From a virus (lineage: Duplodnaviria > Caudoviricetes), in the IMG/VR virus record IMGVR_UViG_3300014205_000003, positions 32,001-96,000 of that record: a DNA stretch of 64,000 nt, one strand, 5' to 3'. Under the pieces are notes generated by a model that made no database searches, was not told the DNA's origin, and saw nothing but the letters and a program-made list of their open reading frames with translations. Position 1 is the stretch's first letter. Each line of letters starts with the position of its first letter. The translations under genes and the position numbers were made by a program. Below are positions 3,354 through 55,196 of the stretch, piece by piece.

Positions 3354-4327
3354 CAAAGCTTCAGACTCTTATTTATCTTCAAGGCTACCTGAGCAAGGAA
3401 GCTTTCGACTTCAATCCTTTTGGCGATCGCAAGGGGCGTGCACAAGATGCTAAGGCAAATGCTCGTACTGCTAAGATCAATGCAGCTGAAGCTAAGTCGA
3501 ATCGTCAGAGCTACTTGACTGCTAATGATCTAGGGCTTCAAGATGCTTTAGCTAATCGTGCAACAAATAAAGGTGTGTATGGTCAGATGACTGCAGCGGC
3601 AAATGCTAAAGCTGCTCAGACGCCTGCACCGACTCCTGCTGCTTCTCCAGAGCCTATGCAAGATCCTGCGATTACTCGAGCACAGCAAGTAGCTGCCGCT
3701 AAGAAGATGTCTCCCTATATGCGCGGAAGCACAATGCCTCGGGCTCAACAGCTTAATCAAGCTGCTCCAACTGTTGCACAAGCAACTCCTACAGCTACTC
3801 CTAAGACTGTTGTTGATCCTAATCCGATGAATACAGGAAATGTAGGCGAGAAGCAACGCACAGCACTTTTACAAGAAGAACAACCAAACATGAATCGGTT
3901 AGCTATTCAAACAAAAGCACCTGCAATGCCTCAGTATCCTAGGAAAAATGTTGTTCCTACCTCGCCTAGACCTACGAGAGCTCAAGCGGCGGCACTGAAG
4001 GGTGAGGTAGCTAGTATTAAAGCAGCGCAGACAGCCCAAACACAACAACCTGCAGCAACTCCTTCGTTTAGACCTGTTGCAGCTGTTCCCCAAGGACGTG
4101 CGGCGTATACAGCAAGTAACAAAGATGATATGGGTCAAATTAGAGCAGGTACTGCTACAATGAATCCCGAATGGCTAAAAAGACCGTCTGGGGATTTTTC
4201 AAATAGTCAAAAGCGTCGAGATCTGATTAGAAATCAGCTGGTTGCTTTGCAAAGAGGGAAACGGACTCCAGATATTAACCAAGTTGCAAAAAATACGGGT
4301 GTTAACCTGCTTCTTCCGGCACTATAA
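3350..4327 (+). CDS. A/Q/P/T-rich protein with variant N-terminal motif
   Basis: MTKLQTLIYLQGYLSKEA; coupled start/stop. Confidence 0.8.
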   Translation: MTKLQTLIYLQGYLSKEAFDFNPFGDRKGRAQDAKANARTAKINAAEAKSNRQSYLTANDLGLQDALANRATNKGVYGQMTAAANAKAAQTPAPTPAASPEPMQDPAITRAQQVAAAKKMSPYMRGSTMPRAQQLNQAAPTVAQATPTATPKTVVDPNPMNTGNVGEKQRTALLQEEQPNMNRLAIQTKAPAMPQYPRKNVVPTSPRPTRAQAAALKGEVASIKAAQTAQTQQPAATPSFRPVAAVPQGRAAYTASNKDDMGQIRAGTATMNPEWLKRPSGDFSNSQKRRDLIRNQLVALQRGKRTPDINQVAKNTGVNLLLPAL

Positions 4328-13949: not shown

Positions 13950-14227
13950 GGTAACTCTCTCCCAAGCCCTCTGAATGTCTAGACTACTCCTAAGAACAAT
14001 TCCTGTATGCTTCAAACCACTTGCTGTAAGTGCTCTAAGCAGACACACCCACCTTATCCTTCTTCCGTCGTGCAACATAGCTTCTTCATAGCCCTCCAAT
14101 ATGGTAATAGGACGCTAAATTAGTCTATGTTGTTGATTCAAGCAATGGCAGGGATACAGAGTTCAGTCACTTAGAGTGGTTTCGGTACGAATACGATCAC
14201 ATACGAGTGTTTGCGATAAAGAATTAA
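13950..14227. pseudogene. Remainder of the C39 peptidase: middle part inverted (- strand), C-terminus on + strand
   Basis: Minus strand 14104->13950 reads PYWRAMKKLCCTTEEG then (frameshift) LLRALTASGLKH; plus strand reads DAKLVYVVDSSNG...IKN*. Confidence 0.55.
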
Positions 14228-18405: not shown

Positions 18406-19460
18406 CCACTTTTCACGGAAGGGGGACTATAAGCTCCCCTCTGTCGAATATTAATGGCCGCATTGAAGTCTGCGTCCATCGTCATTCCACACGCGGTACA
18501 ACAGAACGACTCTCCCTTACGGGAAAGTTTGTCTACCGCTCCGCACAAGCTGCATGTCTGCGAAGTATAGGCAGGAGGTACTTTCGTATACTTAATGCCT
18601 AATTCTTCGCTGACCATCTGAAGCCGACTCAAAACTTTTGAGTAGCTCCAGCGTTGCAGCTTGTTCATGAACTGTTTGCGAATCTTACCTTTAGACCCCT
18701 TCTTCACATCCTTCAAATCTTCTACTACAAGCTCTCGAACGTTCTGCAAGTCGAGAAGATTAACAGACTGATTGATCTTCTGATCACGTTCTGTAAGAGC
18801 TCGCTTGAAAGCTTTAGATCCTTGCTTCTTCCTAGCAATTTTCTTATACACATCTTCCATACCTACGTCGTAGATTTGCTGATCTGACGAAGCAAGAAGC
18901 TTCTTGTACCCGCAATCAAGACCTAAGGAAGATCCTATAGAAGAGCTAGGAGTAGTCTTCTCGAAGAAGACATCGAGGAACCACTTTCCGTTTACGTTTC
19001 TTAAACAGGAGCCTTTCAGTAGTTTCCAGCCATTCTGACTGAACTTGAGAAAGTGTTTATGTTTACGTGAAGGGATCTTAAGGATGAGCTTGTTCCCAAG
19101 ACAGTATATTTTTATCCAGAAGTCGAAGGAGTTAGTTTCGGCGTAAAAGGTGCAGATATTTTCACTTAAATCAAACGTCTTCTGTTTGATCACCGGCTTG
19201 GAAGCTTTCTTGCCTTTGTTCTTTCGCGTCCTTGTTCTGTTAAGCACGCCAAAAGCCTGAATAAAGAGACAGTGACAAATTCTATGAGAGAGCCATGTTT
19301 GAACAGGTTGTAGCTTGTCAAATTTTCTTGCTGACGGATATTGCCAAAAGTGATCTACGTAGACGTTGAGAACACGTAGAGCTTCATCACTGAACGTATT
19401 AAGCTTCTGGAGCTTTCCAGCATTAGCAAAATTCAATGACATTTGAACTCGACGAATCAC
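18402..19460 (-). CDS. tnpB: TnpB/Cas12f-like endonuclease (copy 2)
   Basis: GLDCG, VEDL, DADFNAA; CSLC/CTAC Zn finger. Confidence 0.9.
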   Translation of the reverse strand: MIRRVQMSLNFANAGKLQKLNTFSDEALRVLNVYVDHFWQYPSARKFDKLQPVQTWLSHRICHCLFIQAFGVLNRTRTRKNKGKKASKPVIKQKTFDLSENICTFYAETNSFDFWIKIYCLGNKLILKIPSRKHKHFLKFSQNGWKLLKGSCLRNVNGKWFLDVFFEKTTPSSSIGSSLGLDCGYKKLLASSDQQIYDVGMEDVYKKIARKKQGSKAFKRALTERDQKINQSVNLLDLQNVRELVVEDLKDVKKGSKGKIRKQFMNKLQRWSYSKVLSRLQMVSEELGIKYTKVPPAYTSQTCSLCGAVDKLSRKGESFCCTACGMTMDADFNAAINIRQRGAYSPPSVKSG

Positions 19461-19624
19461 TTAGAGACTTCTCCTATAAGAGCTTCGACAGCCTTTAAAG
19501 AAACCTTACGGCGTTTTGACGGGGTGACGTAACCTTTAAGATGTCCAGAGTCAAACCAGTTACGAACTGTATCAGGATGAACTCCTAGCATCTTAGCTGC
19601 TTTGACGATTGATATGAATTCCAT
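19457..19624 (-). CDS. MerR/excisionase-type HTH protein (55 aa) coupled to tnpB
   Basis: Hand translation MEFISIVKAAKMLGVHPDTVRNWFDSGHLKGYVTPSKRRKVSLKAVEALIGEVSK; GTGA overlap with tnpB start. Confidence 0.8.
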   Translation of the reverse strand: MEFISIVKAAKMLGVHPDTVRNWFDSGHLKGYVTPSKRRKVSLKAVEALIGEVSK

Positions 19625-19804
19625 GTTTCTTGTTCTTTCTGTTCTAATTCTAATATAGCACCGCTTTTAAATAAACTGTTCATCTGTGCGTTTTTATTCA
19701 TAAGGTAAATGTTTTGTATTTTTGTTCGTATATTATCTCTAATGACTTTCCTCAGTATATTAGTTGTGTGGCACCTGTTGTAATCTAGTAAAGGAAAACT
19801 CACG

Positions 19805-29552: not shown

Positions 29553-30518
29553 ATGTACGATCCTACTGTCAAAGCTAAGAATGCCACCCTCCTGGACTCC
29601 CTCACGTCTACTGACGGGAATCTTCAGAAGGAAGCCGCTGGGAAACTCACCGACTACTTGATCGTCAAAGCTCGTGAAGATGGTATCTTCCGTAAGGTCC
29701 TTCCTCCGACTCCGGTCACGTGGGACGATATGGTTCCCCAGGTTGATAGCCTTAAGCCGGTTATCATCCGTGAAATGCAGCCCGAATCCAATGGCGCGTA
29801 CAGCTTGCCGTTTGGTGGTGTGCCCTATGACACCTTCTTCGGTGCCCCGCGCTATCGGATTACCTTCGATCGCGTCAAGAGCCGTCGAATGACTGCTGAC
29901 GTGATGAACCTCCGTGGCTATACGATGGACATCCGTCAGGTGTTCAACGACCTCCTGCTCAAGGACATCCTTGCTGAGGAAGATCGTAAGTTCATCGTGC
30001 AGTGCAATGCACTCGTTGGTGCGAAAAACTCGACTGCTACTGCGCGTTATACCGCCGTGGCTGCGAAGGGTTACATCGACCTCGGTGGTCCGATTAGCCG
30101 TTCGACCCTCGAGCTGTTCCGCGAAGCTCTTCCGAGCACCAATCGGCACTTGAATCCGGCCCTGGCACTCGTCAACAACGTGACCATCAATCAGGTGATC
30201 ACGCTTGACCGTGCTGCGATCGGTGGTGACATGGCTCAGGATATCCTGCAGGAAGGTTTCTCCAAGAACCGTCTCGTGGGTATGGACTGGATCTCCACTA
30301 TCAAGACCGATCTCGTTCCGAACAACGTCGCGTTCCAGTTCACCACGCCGGAAGCCCTCGGTGACTTCTGCGTGTTGGAAGATGTGACTGTGAGCACGAA
30401 ATCAGAGAATTATTTCTTTGAGATGTTCGCGTATGAAACTATCGGCGGCAGCATTGCGAACGTAGGCGCTTTGGCCAAAGCCTACTTCGGAGGCAGTACT
30501 GCCGGTGCTTGGGTGTAA
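29553..30518 (+). CDS. Major capsid protein (probably HK97 fold)
   Basis: AGGAGG RBS, strong codon bias, REDGIFRKVLPP, order protease-scaffold-decoration-capsid-terminator; N-terminal LQKEAA possible cleavage site. Confidence 0.8.
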   Translation: MYDPTVKAKNATLLDSLTSTDGNLQKEAAGKLTDYLIVKAREDGIFRKVLPPTPVTWDDMVPQVDSLKPVIIREMQPESNGAYSLPFGGVPYDTFFGAPRYRITFDRVKSRRMTADVMNLRGYTMDIRQVFNDLLLKDILAEEDRKFIVQCNALVGAKNSTATARYTAVAAKGYIDLGGPISRSTLELFREALPSTNRHLNPALALVNNVTINQVITLDRAAIGGDMAQDILQEGFSKNRLVGMDWISTIKTDLVPNNVAFQFTTPEALGDFCVLEDVTVSTKSENYFFEMFAYETIGGSIANVGALAKAYFGGSTAGAWV

Positions 30519-30557
30519 GCTGTATCTTACGTAGCTAGAAATAGTTACGGTACTTAG

Positions 30558-30590
30558 AGCCCTCGGAGAAATCCGGGGGCTTTTCATTTT
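30558..30590 (+). terminator. Rho-independent terminator
   Basis: agccctcgga-gaaa-tccgggggct followed by tttcatttt. Confidence 0.85.
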
Positions 30591-30600
30591 ACATGTTTTC

Positions 30601-30690
30601 AAACCACTTATACGAAATGTTTGCGTATGAAACTAAAACCGCTTCTTCGAAATGTTTGCGTACCTATAAAATAAATTCCACGAACCGCTT
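30601..30690 (+). repeat. Mini-array: RAACCRCTT x3 with two cgaaatgtttgcgta units resembling the capsid gene
   Basis: Repeats at 30601, 30636, 30682; 15-bp unit at 30613 and 30648. Confidence 0.8.
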
Positions 30691-30716
30691 GACGATGGGG
30701 TGCTTTATGATAAATT
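30689..30716 (+). promoter_or_regulatory. Putative sigma70 promoter of the HNH gene
   Basis: TTGACG, 16 nt, TAAATT with extended -10 TG. Confidence 0.45.
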
Positions 30717-30761
30717 ATTCTTAGGTAGAAATTCATCTATCTAAACAAAGGATACTAGAAA

Positions 30762-31808
30762 ATGCGTCCTCTCGAAACCAGAACCTGTGCATGTGGCAAG
30801 ACCTTCCAGATCAAACCGTACAGCAAGCAGCAGTGTTGCAGCTCTGTCTGTGGCGCTAACTTCCGTAAAGGGAAGACAGGCTTTAAGGATATGACAGGCC
30901 TTAAGGTCAACCTGCTTACAGCTACGCGTCAGGCTACGGATGATGACAAGAAGCATCTCCCTGTGATTGCTCAGCAAAAGATTCACTGGGTGTGCACTTG
31001 TGATTGTGGAAAGACGGGGGTTATTGTTGCAGGTGGTGATTTGCGTTCAGGTGCTGTTAAGAGCTGTGGTTGTGCACGTACTAAACGTCACCCTGAAGAC
31101 TATGTCTGCGAAGTCTGTGGAAAGACTTTTTCAGCTATTCCGTATCCTGGACGTCCTCATCGCGCTTGCTCCAATGAGTGCAAGATCCAGCTGGTGGGCG
31201 GTTTCCACAAGCGGAAAGACTATGTAGGGAAGCGATTTGGTCGTCTTACTGTACAGAGTGTTGACGAGACTTTGTCTGCGGCTCTTGATGGACGTAAGCA
31301 CTGCGTGTTGCATCTTAATTGTAAGTGTGACTGTGGTAAAGAGCTTGTTGTGAAAGCAAATGCTCTGAACAATGGTCAGAAGAGCTGTGGATGCTATCGA
31401 AAAGAACTTACTGCAGAGGATAATCGCATCTCTAGTGCTACAACTCTCTATAAGGTGTATGCGAAGAATGCCGCGAATCGTATGCTTCCCTTCGACCTAT
31501 CTCTTTCAGAGTTCATGCATATCGCTGGCCAAAAATGCCACTACTGCGGAGCTTTACCGAACACTCAAGGAAGCTACTGTGATCGTGTACAGGATCGTTC
31601 AAAAGCTTTTCCTGCTACTGGTGTGGACAGAAAGGACGCGAAGCTAGGTTACAGCTTAGAAAATTGCGTCAGCGCATGCTCATCCTGCAACCTTTCGAAG
31701 CAGTCTATGACCTATGATGATTACAGACAGCACCTGCTTAAATCTGCTGCACACATCATTAGTCAAGCAACTGTAGAAGTTATGCCTTCTGCAGAGCTTG
31801 CTGTTTAA
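30762..31808 (+). CDS. Free-standing HNH-type (His-Me finger) homing endonuclease with repeated Zn-binding DNA-binding domains
   Basis: CxCDCG...KSCGC modules x2; CHYCG...GVDRKD..GYSLENCV.AC..CN..K. Confidence 0.85.
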   Translation: MRPLETRTCACGKTFQIKPYSKQQCCSSVCGANFRKGKTGFKDMTGLKVNLLTATRQATDDDKKHLPVIAQQKIHWVCTCDCGKTGVIVAGGDLRSGAVKSCGCARTKRHPEDYVCEVCGKTFSAIPYPGRPHRACSNECKIQLVGGFHKRKDYVGKRFGRLTVQSVDETLSAALDGRKHCVLHLNCKCDCGKELVVKANALNNGQKSCGCYRKELTAEDNRISSATTLYKVYAKNAANRMLPFDLSLSEFMHIAGQKCHYCGALPNTQGSYCDRVQDRSKAFPATGVDRKDAKLGYSLENCVSACSSCNLSKQSMTYDDYRQHLLKSAAHIISQATVEVMPSAELAV

Positions 31809-31827
31809 GTTACACACGTTTTCTTCT

Positions 31828-31862
31828 AGGAGCCGCTTCTCAGGATATGGGGAGCGGCTCTT
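31828..31862 (+). terminator. Intergenic hairpin (terminator or processing site)
   Basis: aggagccgcttctca / tggggagcggctctt, 15-bp stem; weak U tract. Confidence 0.5.
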
Positions 31863-31928
31863 ATGCTTATCCGCTATATTAGGTAGTGTCGCAGTGACAT
31901 TTAAACTGCAAAACAAAGGAATCTAAAC

Positions 31929-32738
31929 ATGGTATTCAAGACAGCGATTAAGAACAATCTGGGCTATGAACGTCGATTGATGTGGTTGAAGGGTGGATTG
32001 ACGATTGATCCCTTTGGCTTTCAGTTGATGGAAGGTTGTTGGCCTGACAAGTGTAATGACTCGGAACGTAGAGGTTTCTTGAACGAATTGGAAGGTGGTT
32101 CGATTACTGTCACGTATGTGACCGACATGGCGACCATTCATCCAGACAAGCTTCAGGAGTTTCTTGAGACTAGTGGTAAGAATCCTAATCCGCCTGTTGA
32201 GGCTCCCGTGGCTCCTGTTGCTCCTGTCGCTGTTGCAGAGGAGTCTAAGGAAGTGATTCAGGCTCCTGCTCCTGTGAAAGAGAAGGTAGACGTTAAGAGT
32301 GATCCGATTCCTCAGGCGATTCGCAAGTTGCAGGAGGATGCTCGCAAGTTGTTTGCAGAGGCCAACAAGAATCCTGACACGAAGGCTTTCAAGTTTGGGG
32401 AAGCTGATGTGGATGCTCCTCGCGGCAAGGAAGTGGATTTGACTTCTAAGTTGGCTCACGAAGGAAGTATGGAGCAGTTCATGTCGCAGCGTAAGGGGTT
32501 TACTCCTGATGATGTGACAGCTGTTGCTGAGTTGCCTGAGCAGACTCCTGCGTTCAAGGAGATGGAGTTCAAGCCTACGGTTGACAAGACTCCGATGTTC
32601 AGCGAGACGTCAGCGCCTGCAAATCAGCCTGCAGAGACTCCTGCGAAGCTGGCAGAGGCTAACCCTGTTGTTGAGGCTCAGACGATTGTTGCAGCGGCTT
32701 CTAAGCAGTCTCAGCGTGGTCGTAAGAAAGGTGGATGA
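31929..32738 (+). CDS. Hypothetical protein
   Basis: ORF track; AAAGGA RBS; P/A/E-rich C-terminus. Confidence 0.8.
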   Translation: MVFKTAIKNNLGYERRLMWLKGGLTIDPFGFQLMEGCWPDKCNDSERRGFLNELEGGSITVTYVTDMATIHPDKLQEFLETSGKNPNPPVEAPVAPVAPVAVAEESKEVIQAPAPVKEKVDVKSDPIPQAIRKLQEDARKLFAEANKNPDTKAFKFGEADVDAPRGKEVDLTSKLAHEGSMEQFMSQRKGFTPDDVTAVAELPEQTPAFKEMEFKPTVDKTPMFSETSAPANQPAETPAKLAEANPVVEAQTIVAAASKQSQRGRKKGG

Positions 32739-53709: not shown

Positions 53710-54217
53710 CGTGCGTAATGTGTGTGGCTACAAGTACTCGAAAATTTCGCGTGTATATGCGAAGCTCGGTCGTGTGTGGGTAGAAGGGCATGACGGAAAA
53801 GAACGCAGTCTAGACCCGCGTGAAGCAGCTATCATCGCACTGCAGTTGAACTCTGCGCTACCAGACGAAAAATCCTCAAAAACTGTAGTGCTCAGGCTGA
53901 TAGACGATATCATCAAAGCTGCGCGAGACGCACAGGTACAGAGGGAAAGTCCTCCTGACAAAGACACAAAAATTTTGACAGACACTCTGCTTACCAACGA
54001 GATGAAGAACTCGATGGAGTTGGACCCCAAAGTTTTCGCAATGATTAAGTTCTACCAGACGCAGTTTGCTATGTTGGACTTTGCAGAAGTGAAGTCAGTT
54101 GTTTGCAATGACAAGTGGTCTGACGATCTGAAGAAGGACTTCCTGCGCCTTGCGAATAAGGATCGCTTGGACACTTTTATCAAAACGCAGGGTAGGATGC
54201 TTACAAAGCCAATTTAA
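53675..54217 (+). CDS. Hypothetical protein
   Basis: ATG at 53675 after AAGGA. Confidence 0.7.
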   Translation: MSKLGKLKTRFNVRNVCGYKYSKISRVYAKLGRVWVEGHDGKERSLDPREAAIIALQLNSALPDEKSSKTVVLRLIDDIIKAARDAQVQRESPPDKDTKILTDTLLTNEMKNSMELDPKVFAMIKFYQTQFAMLDFAEVKSVVCNDKWSDDLKKDFLRLANKDRLDTFIKTQGRMLTKPI

Positions 54218-55196
54218 GGATAGGGACTTCTACAGAGACCTCAGGCTTCCATAAGTCTGGGGTCTTTTCTTGTTTAACGAAGAAGGAGCAGAATTCTTTG
54301 AACTGTTCTGGAGTTGCATTCTTGCGCCCATACATAGAATGGAACAGTGCGTGAACGGGTGCCGCGACGGTGATTACGTTGGTAGGAACAAAACGTAAAT
54401 CTGCATGATCACACCAGGATAGTAAGTGATGCGCGTTTAAGGGGCAATAAGTCCCTTTTCTCCGTTTAACTCCTGTAACTTGACAGGTGTAAGCATCTCT
54501 AAAAAACGTAGAACGTATAAAGGGGTGCAACTCGGGATATAACATCGCTCTCTTTTTACTGCGCTGTCTCTCTTCTGTTGTAAGGTCGTGTTTGAACCAG
54601 TGATGATCTTTTCCAGAATGGTAACAAGAACAACCACAGCTTTTCTTTTCCCCTGTGGTTAGGGAGTGTCCGTTTACCTCAACAGTTTTTCCACAGTCGC
54701 ATACAGCTATCCAGCAATAACTCGGCTTAGTGGGTTTGTGTATGTGTTGCGTGATAAGAAGTTTACCAAATCTCTGTCCTAGCAGATTGTTAACTTTGTT
54801 ACAGTGTCGATTACAGCTTTTTGGTCTTTTCTTACTCCTGTTACAGAGGAGTTCATTTTGTAATTTCTGGACAGTCTTGCCACAATCGCACAGACACTCC
54901 CACAAATGTCCTTTTTCGTCGTGTGAAAGCCAGCGAAGAACCAACAACTTTCCATACTTCTTTCCAACCAAATCAGGCTTCCGTGAACAAGCCGCAGTAC
55001 AGGCTTGTTTTCTTTGTTTGGGGTTAGGGGCTATTAATGCGCGTTCTACAACCGTTGCAAACTGTCCGCAGTCACATTTACAGAGCCAGTAACGTTTTGC
55101 TGGATTACCACTCTCGTGTCCGTGGGCTTTGGCTACTACTGTTAAGTGATTAACAACATGTCCCACAAGATCAAGTCTAAGCGCTGTCATTCCCAT
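54201..55196 (-). CDS. HNH homing endonuclease with three CxCDCG modules
   Basis: DL.G.K.GKL.V...W.C.CDCG x3; RDAYTCQ..LNAHH..N...H..FH. Confidence 0.85.
   Translation of the reverse strand: MGMTALRLDLVGHVVNHLTVVAKAHGHESGNPAKRYWLCKCDCGQFATVVERALIAPNPKQRKQACTAACSRKPDLVGKKYGKLLVLRWLSHDEKGHLWECLCDCGKTVQKLQNELLCNRSKKRPKSCNRHCNKVNNLLGQRFGKLLITQHIHKPTKPSYCWIAVCDCGKTVEVNGHSLTTGEKKSCGCSCYHSGKDHHWFKHDLTTEERQRSKKRAMLYPELHPFIRSTFFRDAYTCQVTGVKRRKGTYCPLNAHHLLSWCDHADLRFVPTNVITVAAPVHALFHSMYGRKNATPEQFKEFCSFFVKQEKTPDLWKPEVSVEVPILKLAL

Follow-up and report, generated by a model that had tools for sequence, protein, structure and literature searches.

Diverged copies of a conserved capsid-gene site upstream of a free-standing HNH nuclease gene in a large phage genome are most likely look-alikes of its homing site

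Between its major capsid gene and a downstream HNH nuclease gene, the phage genome IMGVR_UViG_3300014205_000003 carries short, diverged copies of a capsid coding site. These copies are most likely look-alikes of a homing site, present as landing pads or as repair scars, and not RNA guides. The analysis covered a window of 64,000 nt, positions 32,001 to 96,000 of this record, and coordinates below refer to the window unless stated otherwise (Table 1). The region of about 30591-31870 (1.28 kb) is best explained as a free-standing homing-endonuclease cassette, extending from the terminator of the capsid gene to the promoter of the next gene. An earlier note on this DNA had placed a free-standing HNH homing endonuclease beside the capsid gene, and the sporadic occurrence of the gene and its HNH domain (phrog_374, PacI) support this assignment at the sequence level.

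Table 1. Features of the capsid-nuclease junction in window coordinates.
Feature	Position	Strand	Basis or remark
Major capsid protein gene, 321 aa from the ATG at 29553; reading frame open from 29544 too	29553..30518	+	
Capsid site, gag aat tat ttc ttt gag atg ttc gcg tat gaa act atc (ENYFFEMFAYETI)	30405..30443	+	
Intrinsic terminator of the capsid gene	30556..30590	+	Terminator scan: 12-pair stem with T run
U1, aac cac tta tac gaa atg ttt gcg tat gaa act	30602..30634	+	Diverged direct copy of capsid 30408-30440
U2, aac cgc ttc ttc gaa atg ttt gcg tac	30637..30663	+	Diverged direct copy of capsid 30408-30434
U3 stub, aaccgctt, opening 8 nt of a unit, running into the -35 box	30683..30690	+	
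Sigma70-like promoter of the nuclease gene, TTGACG, 16 nt, TG-a-TAAATT	30689..30716	+	Promoter scan
Small leader hairpin, taggtaga / tctatcta	30722..30743	+	MFE fold; predicted 5' leader
Putative free-standing homing endonuclease gene, 348 aa	30762..31808	+	phrog_374 HNH, 4.5e-24
Hairpin 3' of the nuclease gene, right end of the cassette	31830..31869	+	Read from sequence
Promoter-like motif TATATTAG of the next gene (31929-32738)	31875..31882	+	

The capsid gene product weakly matches the major head protein family phrog_2522 and is 27% identical to the annotated major capsid protein of Salmonella phage Arash; its 145 homologues are each about 320 aa long. The copied site is the best-conserved block of the capsid C-terminus, as judged from an alignment and from 35 alleles, and lies about 190 bp from the insertion point. 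Such top conservation marks it as the kind of site that homing enzymes choose. Within it, the window and two relatives, L002 and L004, have the same base at every synonymous position of a 17-nt core, against an overall third-position identity of ~50%. It is only through the unit copies that this site is pointed out as probably the recognition (homing) site of the nuclease in rival phages without the cassette. The core gag atg ttc gcg tat is common to the self allele and the three closest capsid alleles, including that of L002, which lacks the nuclease gene; HNH-bearing and HNH-less alleles thus have identical cores, which offers no basis for self-immunity and counts against the operator reading given below. 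No co-conversion tract, i.e., a rise in identity 3' of the site among HNH-bearing genomes, was found in this region, which is too short for the purpose.

The coordinates and counts of the earlier note were reproduced for the units: 30614-30635 agrees with capsid 30420-30441 at 20/22 positions, 30643-30663 with capsid 30414-30434 at 17/21, and the word RAACCRCTT stands at 30601, 30636 and 30682. This word has eight matches in the window against 2.06 expected, a number reached in 0/100 shuffles. It is in register with the capsid codons aat-tat-ttc (N-Y-F), which makes U1 and U2 diverged copies of one site of ~30 nt (NYFFEMFAYET). The stretch GAAATGTTTGCGTA occurs exactly at 30614 and 30649, and with two mismatches at capsid 30420. 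An ungapped +1/-1 scan of the 42-nt site against the 1.5 kb 3' of the capsid gene, with 70 other capsid windows as the null, gave the window copy a score of 18 against a null of at most 11. The similarity is thus far above chance, and the units are copies of the capsid coding site, as had been claimed. Over their full length, U1 and U2 agree with the self allele at 26/36 and 19/27 positions, respectively, and with each other at 23/27. Both begin at one shared codon (AAC, Asn), with no capsid sequence to its left. A search of the rest of the 188-kb genome found no further copies of the units.

Two statements about the units stand only in part. All mismatches had been described as synonymous; this is true inside the segments compared in the earlier note, where every one is a third-position transition, but first- and second-position mismatches occur outside them, and the counts by codon position are 1/2/7 for U1 and 1/1/6 for U2. 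The third repeat, at 30682, is present as a word but is merely an 8-nt stub on the -35 box, and in-register comparison beyond these 8 nt found no further similarity. A 43-aa open reading frame at 30593-30724, with YEMFAYET in frame, was rejected as a gene: no ribosome-binding site precedes it, and U1 and U2 stand in different frames. A 12-nt match at 14009-14020, ttcaaaccactt, near a TnpB gene, was set aside as expected by chance.

In the nuclease, a small zinc ribbon and a CapR-like zinc module occur twice in succession (residues ~9-31, 43-104, 116-140 and 153-211), and a PacI-like HNH domain follows at residues ~225-320. An internal repeat was detected with an E-value of 2e-8. PacI (3ldy) is matched by sequence over residues 233-316 (E 2.2e-7) and was the top Foldseek hit of the AF2 model (pLDDT 84) with a probability of 1.00, while Pfam PF01844 stayed below threshold (14.8 vs. 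21.4 bits). Eight residues, C259, H260, C262, N301, C302, C306, C309 and N310, are invariant in the nuclease alignment. PacI is the closest solved relative, sharing the motif CxxC...GVDRxD...GYS..N...C..CN; it is a stand-alone homodimeric restriction enzyme of 142 aa, whereas the corresponding domain here forms the C-terminal third of a modular 348-aa protein. The zinc modules align to the CapR-domain repeats of the homologue P0150, which passes Pfam PF21817; CapR was not found by Pfam in the isolated zinc modules of the window protein, which falls below the threshold, so that the CapR link runs through P0150. CapR is a zinc-finger domain that also occurs in phage homing enzymes and represses by binding a -35 box together with upstream sequence (PMC8096241), and homing enzymes with repeated CapR domains cluster near capsid genes (PMC10448857). 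The window enzyme resembles the CapR enzymes of Vibrio phage ICP1 and satellite PLE in joining repeated Cys-rich, DNA-binding zinc-finger modules to a nuclease domain and in having its gene next to a capsid gene, but the ICP1 enzymes carry nuclease domains of the T5orf172/GIY-YIG type in place of the PacI-like HNH. Two HNH paralogues are encoded in the genome, at window positions 54201-55196 (minus strand) and genome positions 109702-110580, and their leaders contain no copies of neighbouring genes.

An independent Logan assembly of the probable source sample gives the same locus sequence, which is therefore not an assembly artefact. From the hairpin at the right end of the cassette onward, the flank aligns to the intergenic region of HNH-less L002, in which the TATATTAG motif is also found, identifying it as resident sequence. 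Hairpins homologous to the capsid terminator lie 3' of the capsid gene in L002, L003 and L004. A blastn search of the locus against 50,697 phage records returned zero matches, and a single-protein scan of viral contigs found no relatives. In the contigs of four sequencing runs, a relative 96-98% identical was represented in a freshwater-sediment run by capsid and HNH pieces; the spacer 30486-30849 was covered solely in the probable source run, and no joints were seen in these contigs.

Only two close homologues of the nuclease, those of L003 and L004, were found among 5.8 billion proteins, and both occupy the identical junction between the capsid gene and the next gene. A more distant CapR-HNH gene lies at the same junction in L033. 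L002, the closest relative (82% capsid identity), lacks the nuclease, as do about 65 others, and L002 co-occurs with HNH-bearing L003 in one sample. The gene is thus sporadically present at one conserved junction (window, L003, L004 and distant L033), outside any intron or intein; an Rfam search found no group I intron at the window locus.

Copies of the capsid site follow the nuclease lineage, being found at 3/3 of its loci and at 0/25 of the other relatives for which downstream sequence was available; the distant L033 has none. The earlier note had suggested looking for equivalent arrays beside homologous nucleases; copies are present in L003 and L004, but they are single, inverted and without RAACCRCTT. 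The copy in L004 is 38 nt long, agrees with its own capsid site at 29/38 positions (E 2e-5) and scored 20 in the ungapped scan against a null maximum of 12; the piece in L003 is 17 nt long (15/17) and scored above 300/300 shuffled queries. Lineage-specific codons are shared between a copy and the capsid allele of the same genome, two in each case (ET in the window, EC in L004). In L004, the terminator and about 12 nt are duplicated and flank the cassette on both sides. The 250 nt upstream of 80 distant nuclease relatives contained copies of flanking genes no better than those of a downstream control; the best matches in this screen were duplicated promoters or internal zinc-finger repeats, and an apparent parallel in L131 proved to be repeated group-I-intron cores.

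The promoter layout is alike in the three loci, with TTGATT, 16 nt and TG-a-TATACT in L003 and TTGCAT, 17 nt and TG-a-TACATT in L004. Every copy lies no more than about 90 nt upstream of this conserved -35/extended -10 promoter. The distance from the copy edge to the -35 box is 26 nt for U2 in the window, 22 nt in L004 and 0 nt in L003, and contact with the box is limited to the 8-nt U3 stub and the L003 piece. Downstream, the leader hairpin has an 8-pair consensus in the three loci with one compensatory pair, a weak signal from three sequences only, and is followed in the window by the ribosome-binding site aagga at 30748-30752.

Among functional readings, an operator resembling the homing site, which the earlier note had offered as one option, is the best supported, since copies are also found upstream of the conserved promoter in L003 and L004. 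We tentatively propose, at somewhat less than an even chance, that the copies act at the DNA level as homing-site look-alikes and serve as operators in the manner of I-TevI. The nuclease would bind the look-alikes without cutting them and, once bound upstream of and on its own -35 box, would limit its own synthesis. The capsid site as target, the binding of protein to the copies and repression by that binding are all parts that we infer. The differing orientations of the copies fit a protein-binding DNA site and not an RNA. The enzyme I-TevI of the T4 td intron is described in PMC2988022 as having a homing-site-like operator (15/20) that overlaps a T4 late promoter, with binding and repression shown; putative operators of I-TevII and I-TevIII are also reported there, citing Edgell et al. 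2004. The window locus would be similar in placing a homing-site look-alike directly upstream of the endonuclease ORF (20/22 and 17/21, and 29/38 in L004), and in that the look-alike is without part of the full site and so could be bound but not cut. The two systems differ in several respects: the window enzyme is free-standing rather than intron-encoded, with its presumed target in the adjoining capsid gene; two and a half tandem copies, inverted in the relatives, take the place of a single operator; and U1 and U2 lie upstream of the promoter, mostly before the -35 box, and not over it. Autoregulation of this kind would also depart from CapR, which acts on the promoter of another element.

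Variation among the loci weakens the case for selection. Since copy number, orientation and length all vary across the three loci, the L003 piece is badly decayed and L033 has no copy, decay is as likely as selection. The sharing of codons between a copy and its own capsid allele further points to separate origins or conversion, rather than to one conserved operator. The copyless leaders of the two HNH paralogues also tell against the operator reading. The copies may accordingly be scars: faulty repair at capsid-site breaks during homing would have left short pieces by the nuclease gene, which are decaying without function, the proposed routes being template switching and break-induced tandem or fold-back duplication. 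We regard this as a realistic possibility, although we do not hold it to be probable. It would account for the shared AAC start and varied ends of the copies, whose lengths of 27, 33, 38 and 17 nt suit fragments from a fixed break, for their lineage-dependent orientation and number, and for the copyless L033; the codons shared with each capsid allele would imply repeated, separate origins. Non-synonymous and stop changes occur in the copies, and the U3 stub and the L003 piece suggest quick decay. Mismatches concentrate at third codon positions (about 2/6/14 over the three positions once those shared by U1 and U2 are removed), as expected if a coding allele, e.g., that of the recipient, was copied and the resident gene is synonymously different. 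The duplicated terminator and about 12 nt around the L004 cassette are in line with such events, and SegB of phage T6, another free-standing homing enzyme, sets a precedent: its breaks lead to tandem duplications close by that are joined at microhomologies (PMC13096335), a route to scars nearby. The SegB units, however, measure 718 bp, contain the gene for the enzyme and are under selection for tRNA dosage, in contrast to the 17-38 nt of target only found here (PMC13096335). Scarring also does not require a position on the promoter side, which is nevertheless seen in 3/3 loci, and known repair routes do not simply produce inverted copies that lie 200 bp from the site across unique DNA. U1 and U2 agree throughout the 14-nt core and differ at 3/13 positions in their 5' parts, a contrast that is not significant. 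Operator and scar might also be combined: free-standing homing endonucleases might repeatedly capture a cut-proof piece of their target (N-Y-F-F-E-M-F-A-Y) and place it by the promoter as a by-product of the break, so that each lineage draws its operator from its own capsid allele. We consider this unlikely.

Explanations that leave homing aside fare worse. Another factor, such as a phage or host regulator or a UP-like element, might recognise the capsid sequence and have no link to the nuclease. The units do lie where activators or UP elements sit, and the synonymous identity of the 17-nt core in the window, L002 and L004 hints at a DNA-level constraint within the capsid gene; the restriction of the copies to nuclease-lineage loci and their absence from the remainder of the genome make such a factor improbable. 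The suggestion that the units preserve the non-self capsid allele of a rival, as a decoy or for immunity, was not borne out among the nearest relatives. It draws on a U1/U2 consensus that encodes N-x-F-F-E-M-F-A-Y-E-T through other synonymous codons (aac, ttc, gaa, ttt, tac), on an 18-nt core, ttc gaa atg ttt gcg tac, that the alleles of L023 and L068 share without mismatch, and on U2, which agrees better with several non-self alleles (22/27) than it does with the self allele. However, only distant relatives with 54% capsid amino acid identity have the unit-type core, and since 64 synonymous versions of the core are possible, meeting it somewhere among 35 alleles is no surprise. The self-type core is carried by the nearest relatives, among them the single close HNH-less one, U1 is nearest to self, U1 and U2 bear residues of the self lineage (FF, ET), and drift from G to A and from C to T in a spacer of 37% GC, starting from a source gene of 65% GC3, explains gaa and ttt. 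The earlier note had expected the alleles of HNH-less relatives to match the units better than self does, and had named the opposite as one half of a refutation; among the nearest relatives, L002 matches the self core. With the three closest alleles of self type and the in-register identities indecisive between self and non-self, we think storage of a rival allele very improbable.

The other proposal of the earlier note, a small repeat-spacer array supplying an RNA-guided nuclease with its guides, retains hardly any credibility. Its appeal lay in three RAACCRCTT words with capsid-like sequence between them; this word belongs to the capsid copy itself, the third instance has no spacer, and the copies in the relatives are single, inverted and devoid of the word. 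The units lie between the terminator and the -35 box, and the promoter scan found no promoter ahead of them. The fold z-score is -0.61, Rfam gave no match, and the guide regions of the three TnpB genes of the window share at most 7 nt with the locus. The protein consists of zinc fingers and a PacI-like HNH domain, with no RuvC and no Cas9, IscB or TnpB architecture. Lacking array anatomy, RNA structure and an RNA-guided domain, this reading is close to refuted, and the idea of an RNA-guided anti-competitor nuclease is not supported and can be set aside.

Together, the two homing-related readings of the copies, operator and scar, carry different implications. If the copies are binding sites, they give, free of experiment, the recognition sequence of an uncharacterised homing enzyme of the CapR-zinc-finger/PacI-like HNH type, and self-repression in the style of I-TevI would extend from intron enzymes to free-standing, capsid-targeting ones. 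If the endonucleases do recapture their targets, a selfish nuclease would have a self-renewing means of adjusting its regulation to a target that drifts. As scars, the copies would document the cutting position of the enzyme and the ways in which homing repair fails. Either way, they mark the conserved capsid block ENY.FEMFAYE as contested between related giant phages.

The elements around the major capsid gene (Table) lie in a viral record of 188,069 bp with direct terminal repeats, of which the window covers bases 32001–96000. Downstream of this gene, beside a gene for a putative free-standing HNH homing endonuclease, are two diverged copies of a capsid-gene site, U1 and U2. These copies are genuine and statistically solid: scored without gaps (+1/−1) in the 1.5 kb 3′ of the capsid gene, the 42-nt capsid site reaches 18, against a maximum of 11 for 70 other capsid windows, and a second copy matches the same site with a score of 14. 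The probable source sample has a separate assembly in Logan, and the unit sequence there is identical. GC3 is 44% in the cassette versus 65% in the capsid gene. Two short contigs of the probable source sample have only the terminator hairpin (30560–30590) in common before running into unrelated sequence, so this terminator is used elsewhere or by other phages.

Features of the capsid–nuclease locus (window positions)
Feature	Position	Remarks
Major capsid gene	29553–30518	phrog_2522 (weak); 27% identity to capsid of Salmonella phage Arash; 145 homologues
Capsid site	30405–30443	source or look-alike of the copies
Intrinsic terminator of capsid gene	30556–30590	
Spacer before nuclease ORF		243 bp
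U1	30602–30634	copy of capsid site
U2	30637–30663	copy of capsid site
Nuclease ORF	30762–31808	348 aa
Hairpin		3′ of nuclease ORF, before TATATTAG word
TATATTAG promoter-like word	31875	between hairpin and next gene
Next gene after cassette	31929 (start)	

The earlier note had described capsid-gene fragments set between RAACCRCTT repeats, and its coordinates and counts were all correct on re-check. In the register of the capsid codons (aat tat ttc ttt gag atg ttc gcg tat gaa act), U1 reads aac cac tta tac gaa atg ttt gcg tat gaa act and U2 reads aac cgc ttc ttc gaa atg ttt gcg tac. Since the 9-mer keeps this register, it is the N-Y-F part of the same copy, and a spacer-separating repeat is ruled out; the third 9-mer is a stub whose final two bases start the −35 box TTGACG. 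Full-length identity to the resident allele is 26/36 for U1 and 19/27 for U2, with mismatches at the three codon positions of 1/2/7 and 1/1/6, respectively. The statement that all mismatches are synonymous thus holds within the stretches originally compared and fails over the full length, while the third-position excess is real; any coding-sequence copy would show it against a homologue that has since drifted synonymously.

The proposal that the units store the capsid allele of a rival phage found no support among the 35 tabulated alleles of the site. The core gag atg ttc gcg tat is the same in the window, its closest relative (contig L002) and contig L004, identities in register fail to tell self alleles from non-self ones, and the units hold residues typical of the window lineage (FF, ET). 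Only L023 and L068, at 54% capsid identity, have the core of the unit type, ttc gaa atg ttt gcg tac, a match that is uninformative because just 64 synonymous versions of the core exist. In the spacer, which has 37% GC, the two changes common to U1 and U2 (gag to gaa, ttc to ttt) are both GC-to-AT transitions. Copying from the capsid gene of an unsampled close relative is conceivable. The resident site itself (30408–30434) has T-ending codons (aat, tat, ttt, tat) despite the GC3 of 65% in its gene, the first being aac in 33 of 35 relatives; these could reflect drift, or synonymous changes by which the resident allele would escape the nuclease.

Close homologues of the nuclease were detected only twice in a collection of 5.8 billion proteins (53% and 51% identity), both at the same capsid/next-gene junction. 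At 1176–1213 the L004 leader carries, in inverted orientation, a copy of the site from L004’s capsid gene; reverse-complemented, it reads aac tac tcg tat gaa atg ttc gtt tat gag tgt ata gg and agrees with the capsid sequence aac tac atg ttc gag atg ttc gcg tat gag tgc atc gg at 29/38 positions (E 2e-5; score 20 versus a null maximum of 12). On contig L003, whose capsid gene lies off the contig, the comparison was made with the unit consensus, and the inverted 17-mer aacaccttcttcgaaat matches it at 15/17, better than all 300 shuffled queries. The two variable codons after Tyr track the phage’s own capsid allele (gaa act in the window, gag tgt in L004). Every copy is located just upstream of a promoter conserved across the three loci (window, L003, L004), with a TTGAnn-like −35 box, 16–17 nt, and TG-n-TAnAnT. 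No capsid-site copy was found 3′ of the capsid gene in 25 other relatives, including L033, with its leader of just 87 nt. All three loci retain a small hairpin where the nuclease mRNA is predicted to start (window 30722–30743, L004 1270–1292, L003 190–208), one of its pairs being compensatory; it may stabilise or regulate the transcript.

The junction was compared across ~70 relatives from viral and metagenome collections, in which L004 and L021 are the same contig. In L002 (82% capsid identity), the capsid terminator is followed directly, after 130 bp and without an HNH gene, by an orthologue of the gene at 31929, and this uninterrupted spacer aligns with both cassette flanks. Besides the window, just L004, L003 and L033 have an HNH gene at the junction; that of L033 is a distant form, a CapR-module/HNH gene of 28% identity at 3372–3965 (capsid identity 51%), and this family appears to have a hot spot here. 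L002, lacking the nuclease, and L003, carrying it, come from one sample. In L004, the capsid terminator plus ~12 nt stands on either side of the cassette (1076–1123 and 2424–2463), which could offer a route to cassette loss or gain by recombination. Another contig, L131, has three group-I-intron-like core repeats (aattgcggga...gttcaacgacta) at 2300–2840, ahead of an intron-type HNH gene, and seems to hold several introns in tandem.

The nuclease matches phage HNH endonuclease families (phrog_374, 4.5e-24). Over its C-terminal third it is a relative of the restriction enzyme PacI (sequence match E 2.2e-7; common motif GVDRxD...GYS..N..C..CN), which is also the top Foldseek match of the nuclease’s AlphaFold model (pLDDT 84). 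An internal duplication (E 2e-8), in which a small zinc ribbon followed by a W-C-x-C-D-C-G...S-C-G-C module occurs twice, makes up the N-terminal two thirds. These zinc modules align with tandem repeats of the homologue P0150, which scores above the Pfam threshold for the CapR homology domain, the window nuclease itself falling below it. Barth et al. described phage homing enzymes with repeated CapR zinc-finger domains, clustered by essential genes including capsid (PMC10448857).

Other elements recur across the genome. Copies of TATATTAG are found in the window at 19756, 24304, 31875, 36246 and 48864 (+) and 19657 (−), with more in the rest of the genome. At least 11 genes, on both strands, have this word 35–60 nt ahead of their start codons, usually with gc or tgc in front of it; it is absent from the nuclease gene and is probably a promoter element specific to the phage. 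Beyond the window, at genome position 122091, a gene whose product begins MLTGICAYCK follows TATATTAG and the leader word tctaaacaaagga, the latter common to it and the nuclease gene; it may encode another cysteine-rich nuclease. Four paralogous small genes (window ~19460–19660 (−); genome 102565 (−), 143660 (−), 147900 (+)) start with MEYTSVSKAAKM or MEFISIVKAAKM, each behind ttatgcTATATTAGtatt-type promoters, and look like helix-turn-helix proteins; one is directly upstream of a minus-strand 352-aa putative TnpB gene.

Regarding function, a repeat-spacer guide array for an RNA-guided nuclease is not supported: the units sit between a terminator and a −35 box with no promoter found ahead, their region is no more stably folded than shuffled sequence (z −0.61) and has no Rfam match, copy orientation varies among relatives, and the nuclease has no RNA-guided architecture. 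Between the locus and the guide regions of three putative TnpB genes in the window, shared sequence amounts to no more than 7 nt. Two other readings both assume that the conserved capsid block ENY.FEMFAYE is where the nuclease would act. Nearly as good as an operator is the explanation that the copies are repair scars of nuclease breaks; all begin at codon AAC and have ragged right ends, their origin is lineage-specific, copy number and orientation vary, they decay fast, L033 has none, and a homing enzyme is known to drive local duplications at microhomologies (PMC13096335).

In the operator reading, capsid-site look-alikes at the nuclease control region would serve as its DNA sites. We slightly favour it because the copies lie by the promoter in 3/3 loci, an orientation-independent DNA site fits the data, I-TevI is a direct precedent, and a CapR-type zinc-finger protein is known to act as a repressor that binds a −35 box together with upstream sequence (PMC8096241). 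I-TevI has a 15/20 look-alike of its homing site, bound yet poorly cut, with comparable look-alikes upstream of I-TevII and I-TevIII (PMC2988022); the window arrangement resembles it, binding here being predicted. The two readings are compatible, as scars could be the raw material of operators. The earlier suggestion of a homing-site look-alike at the nuclease control region is plausible, and represents a variation on an already known kind of arrangement.
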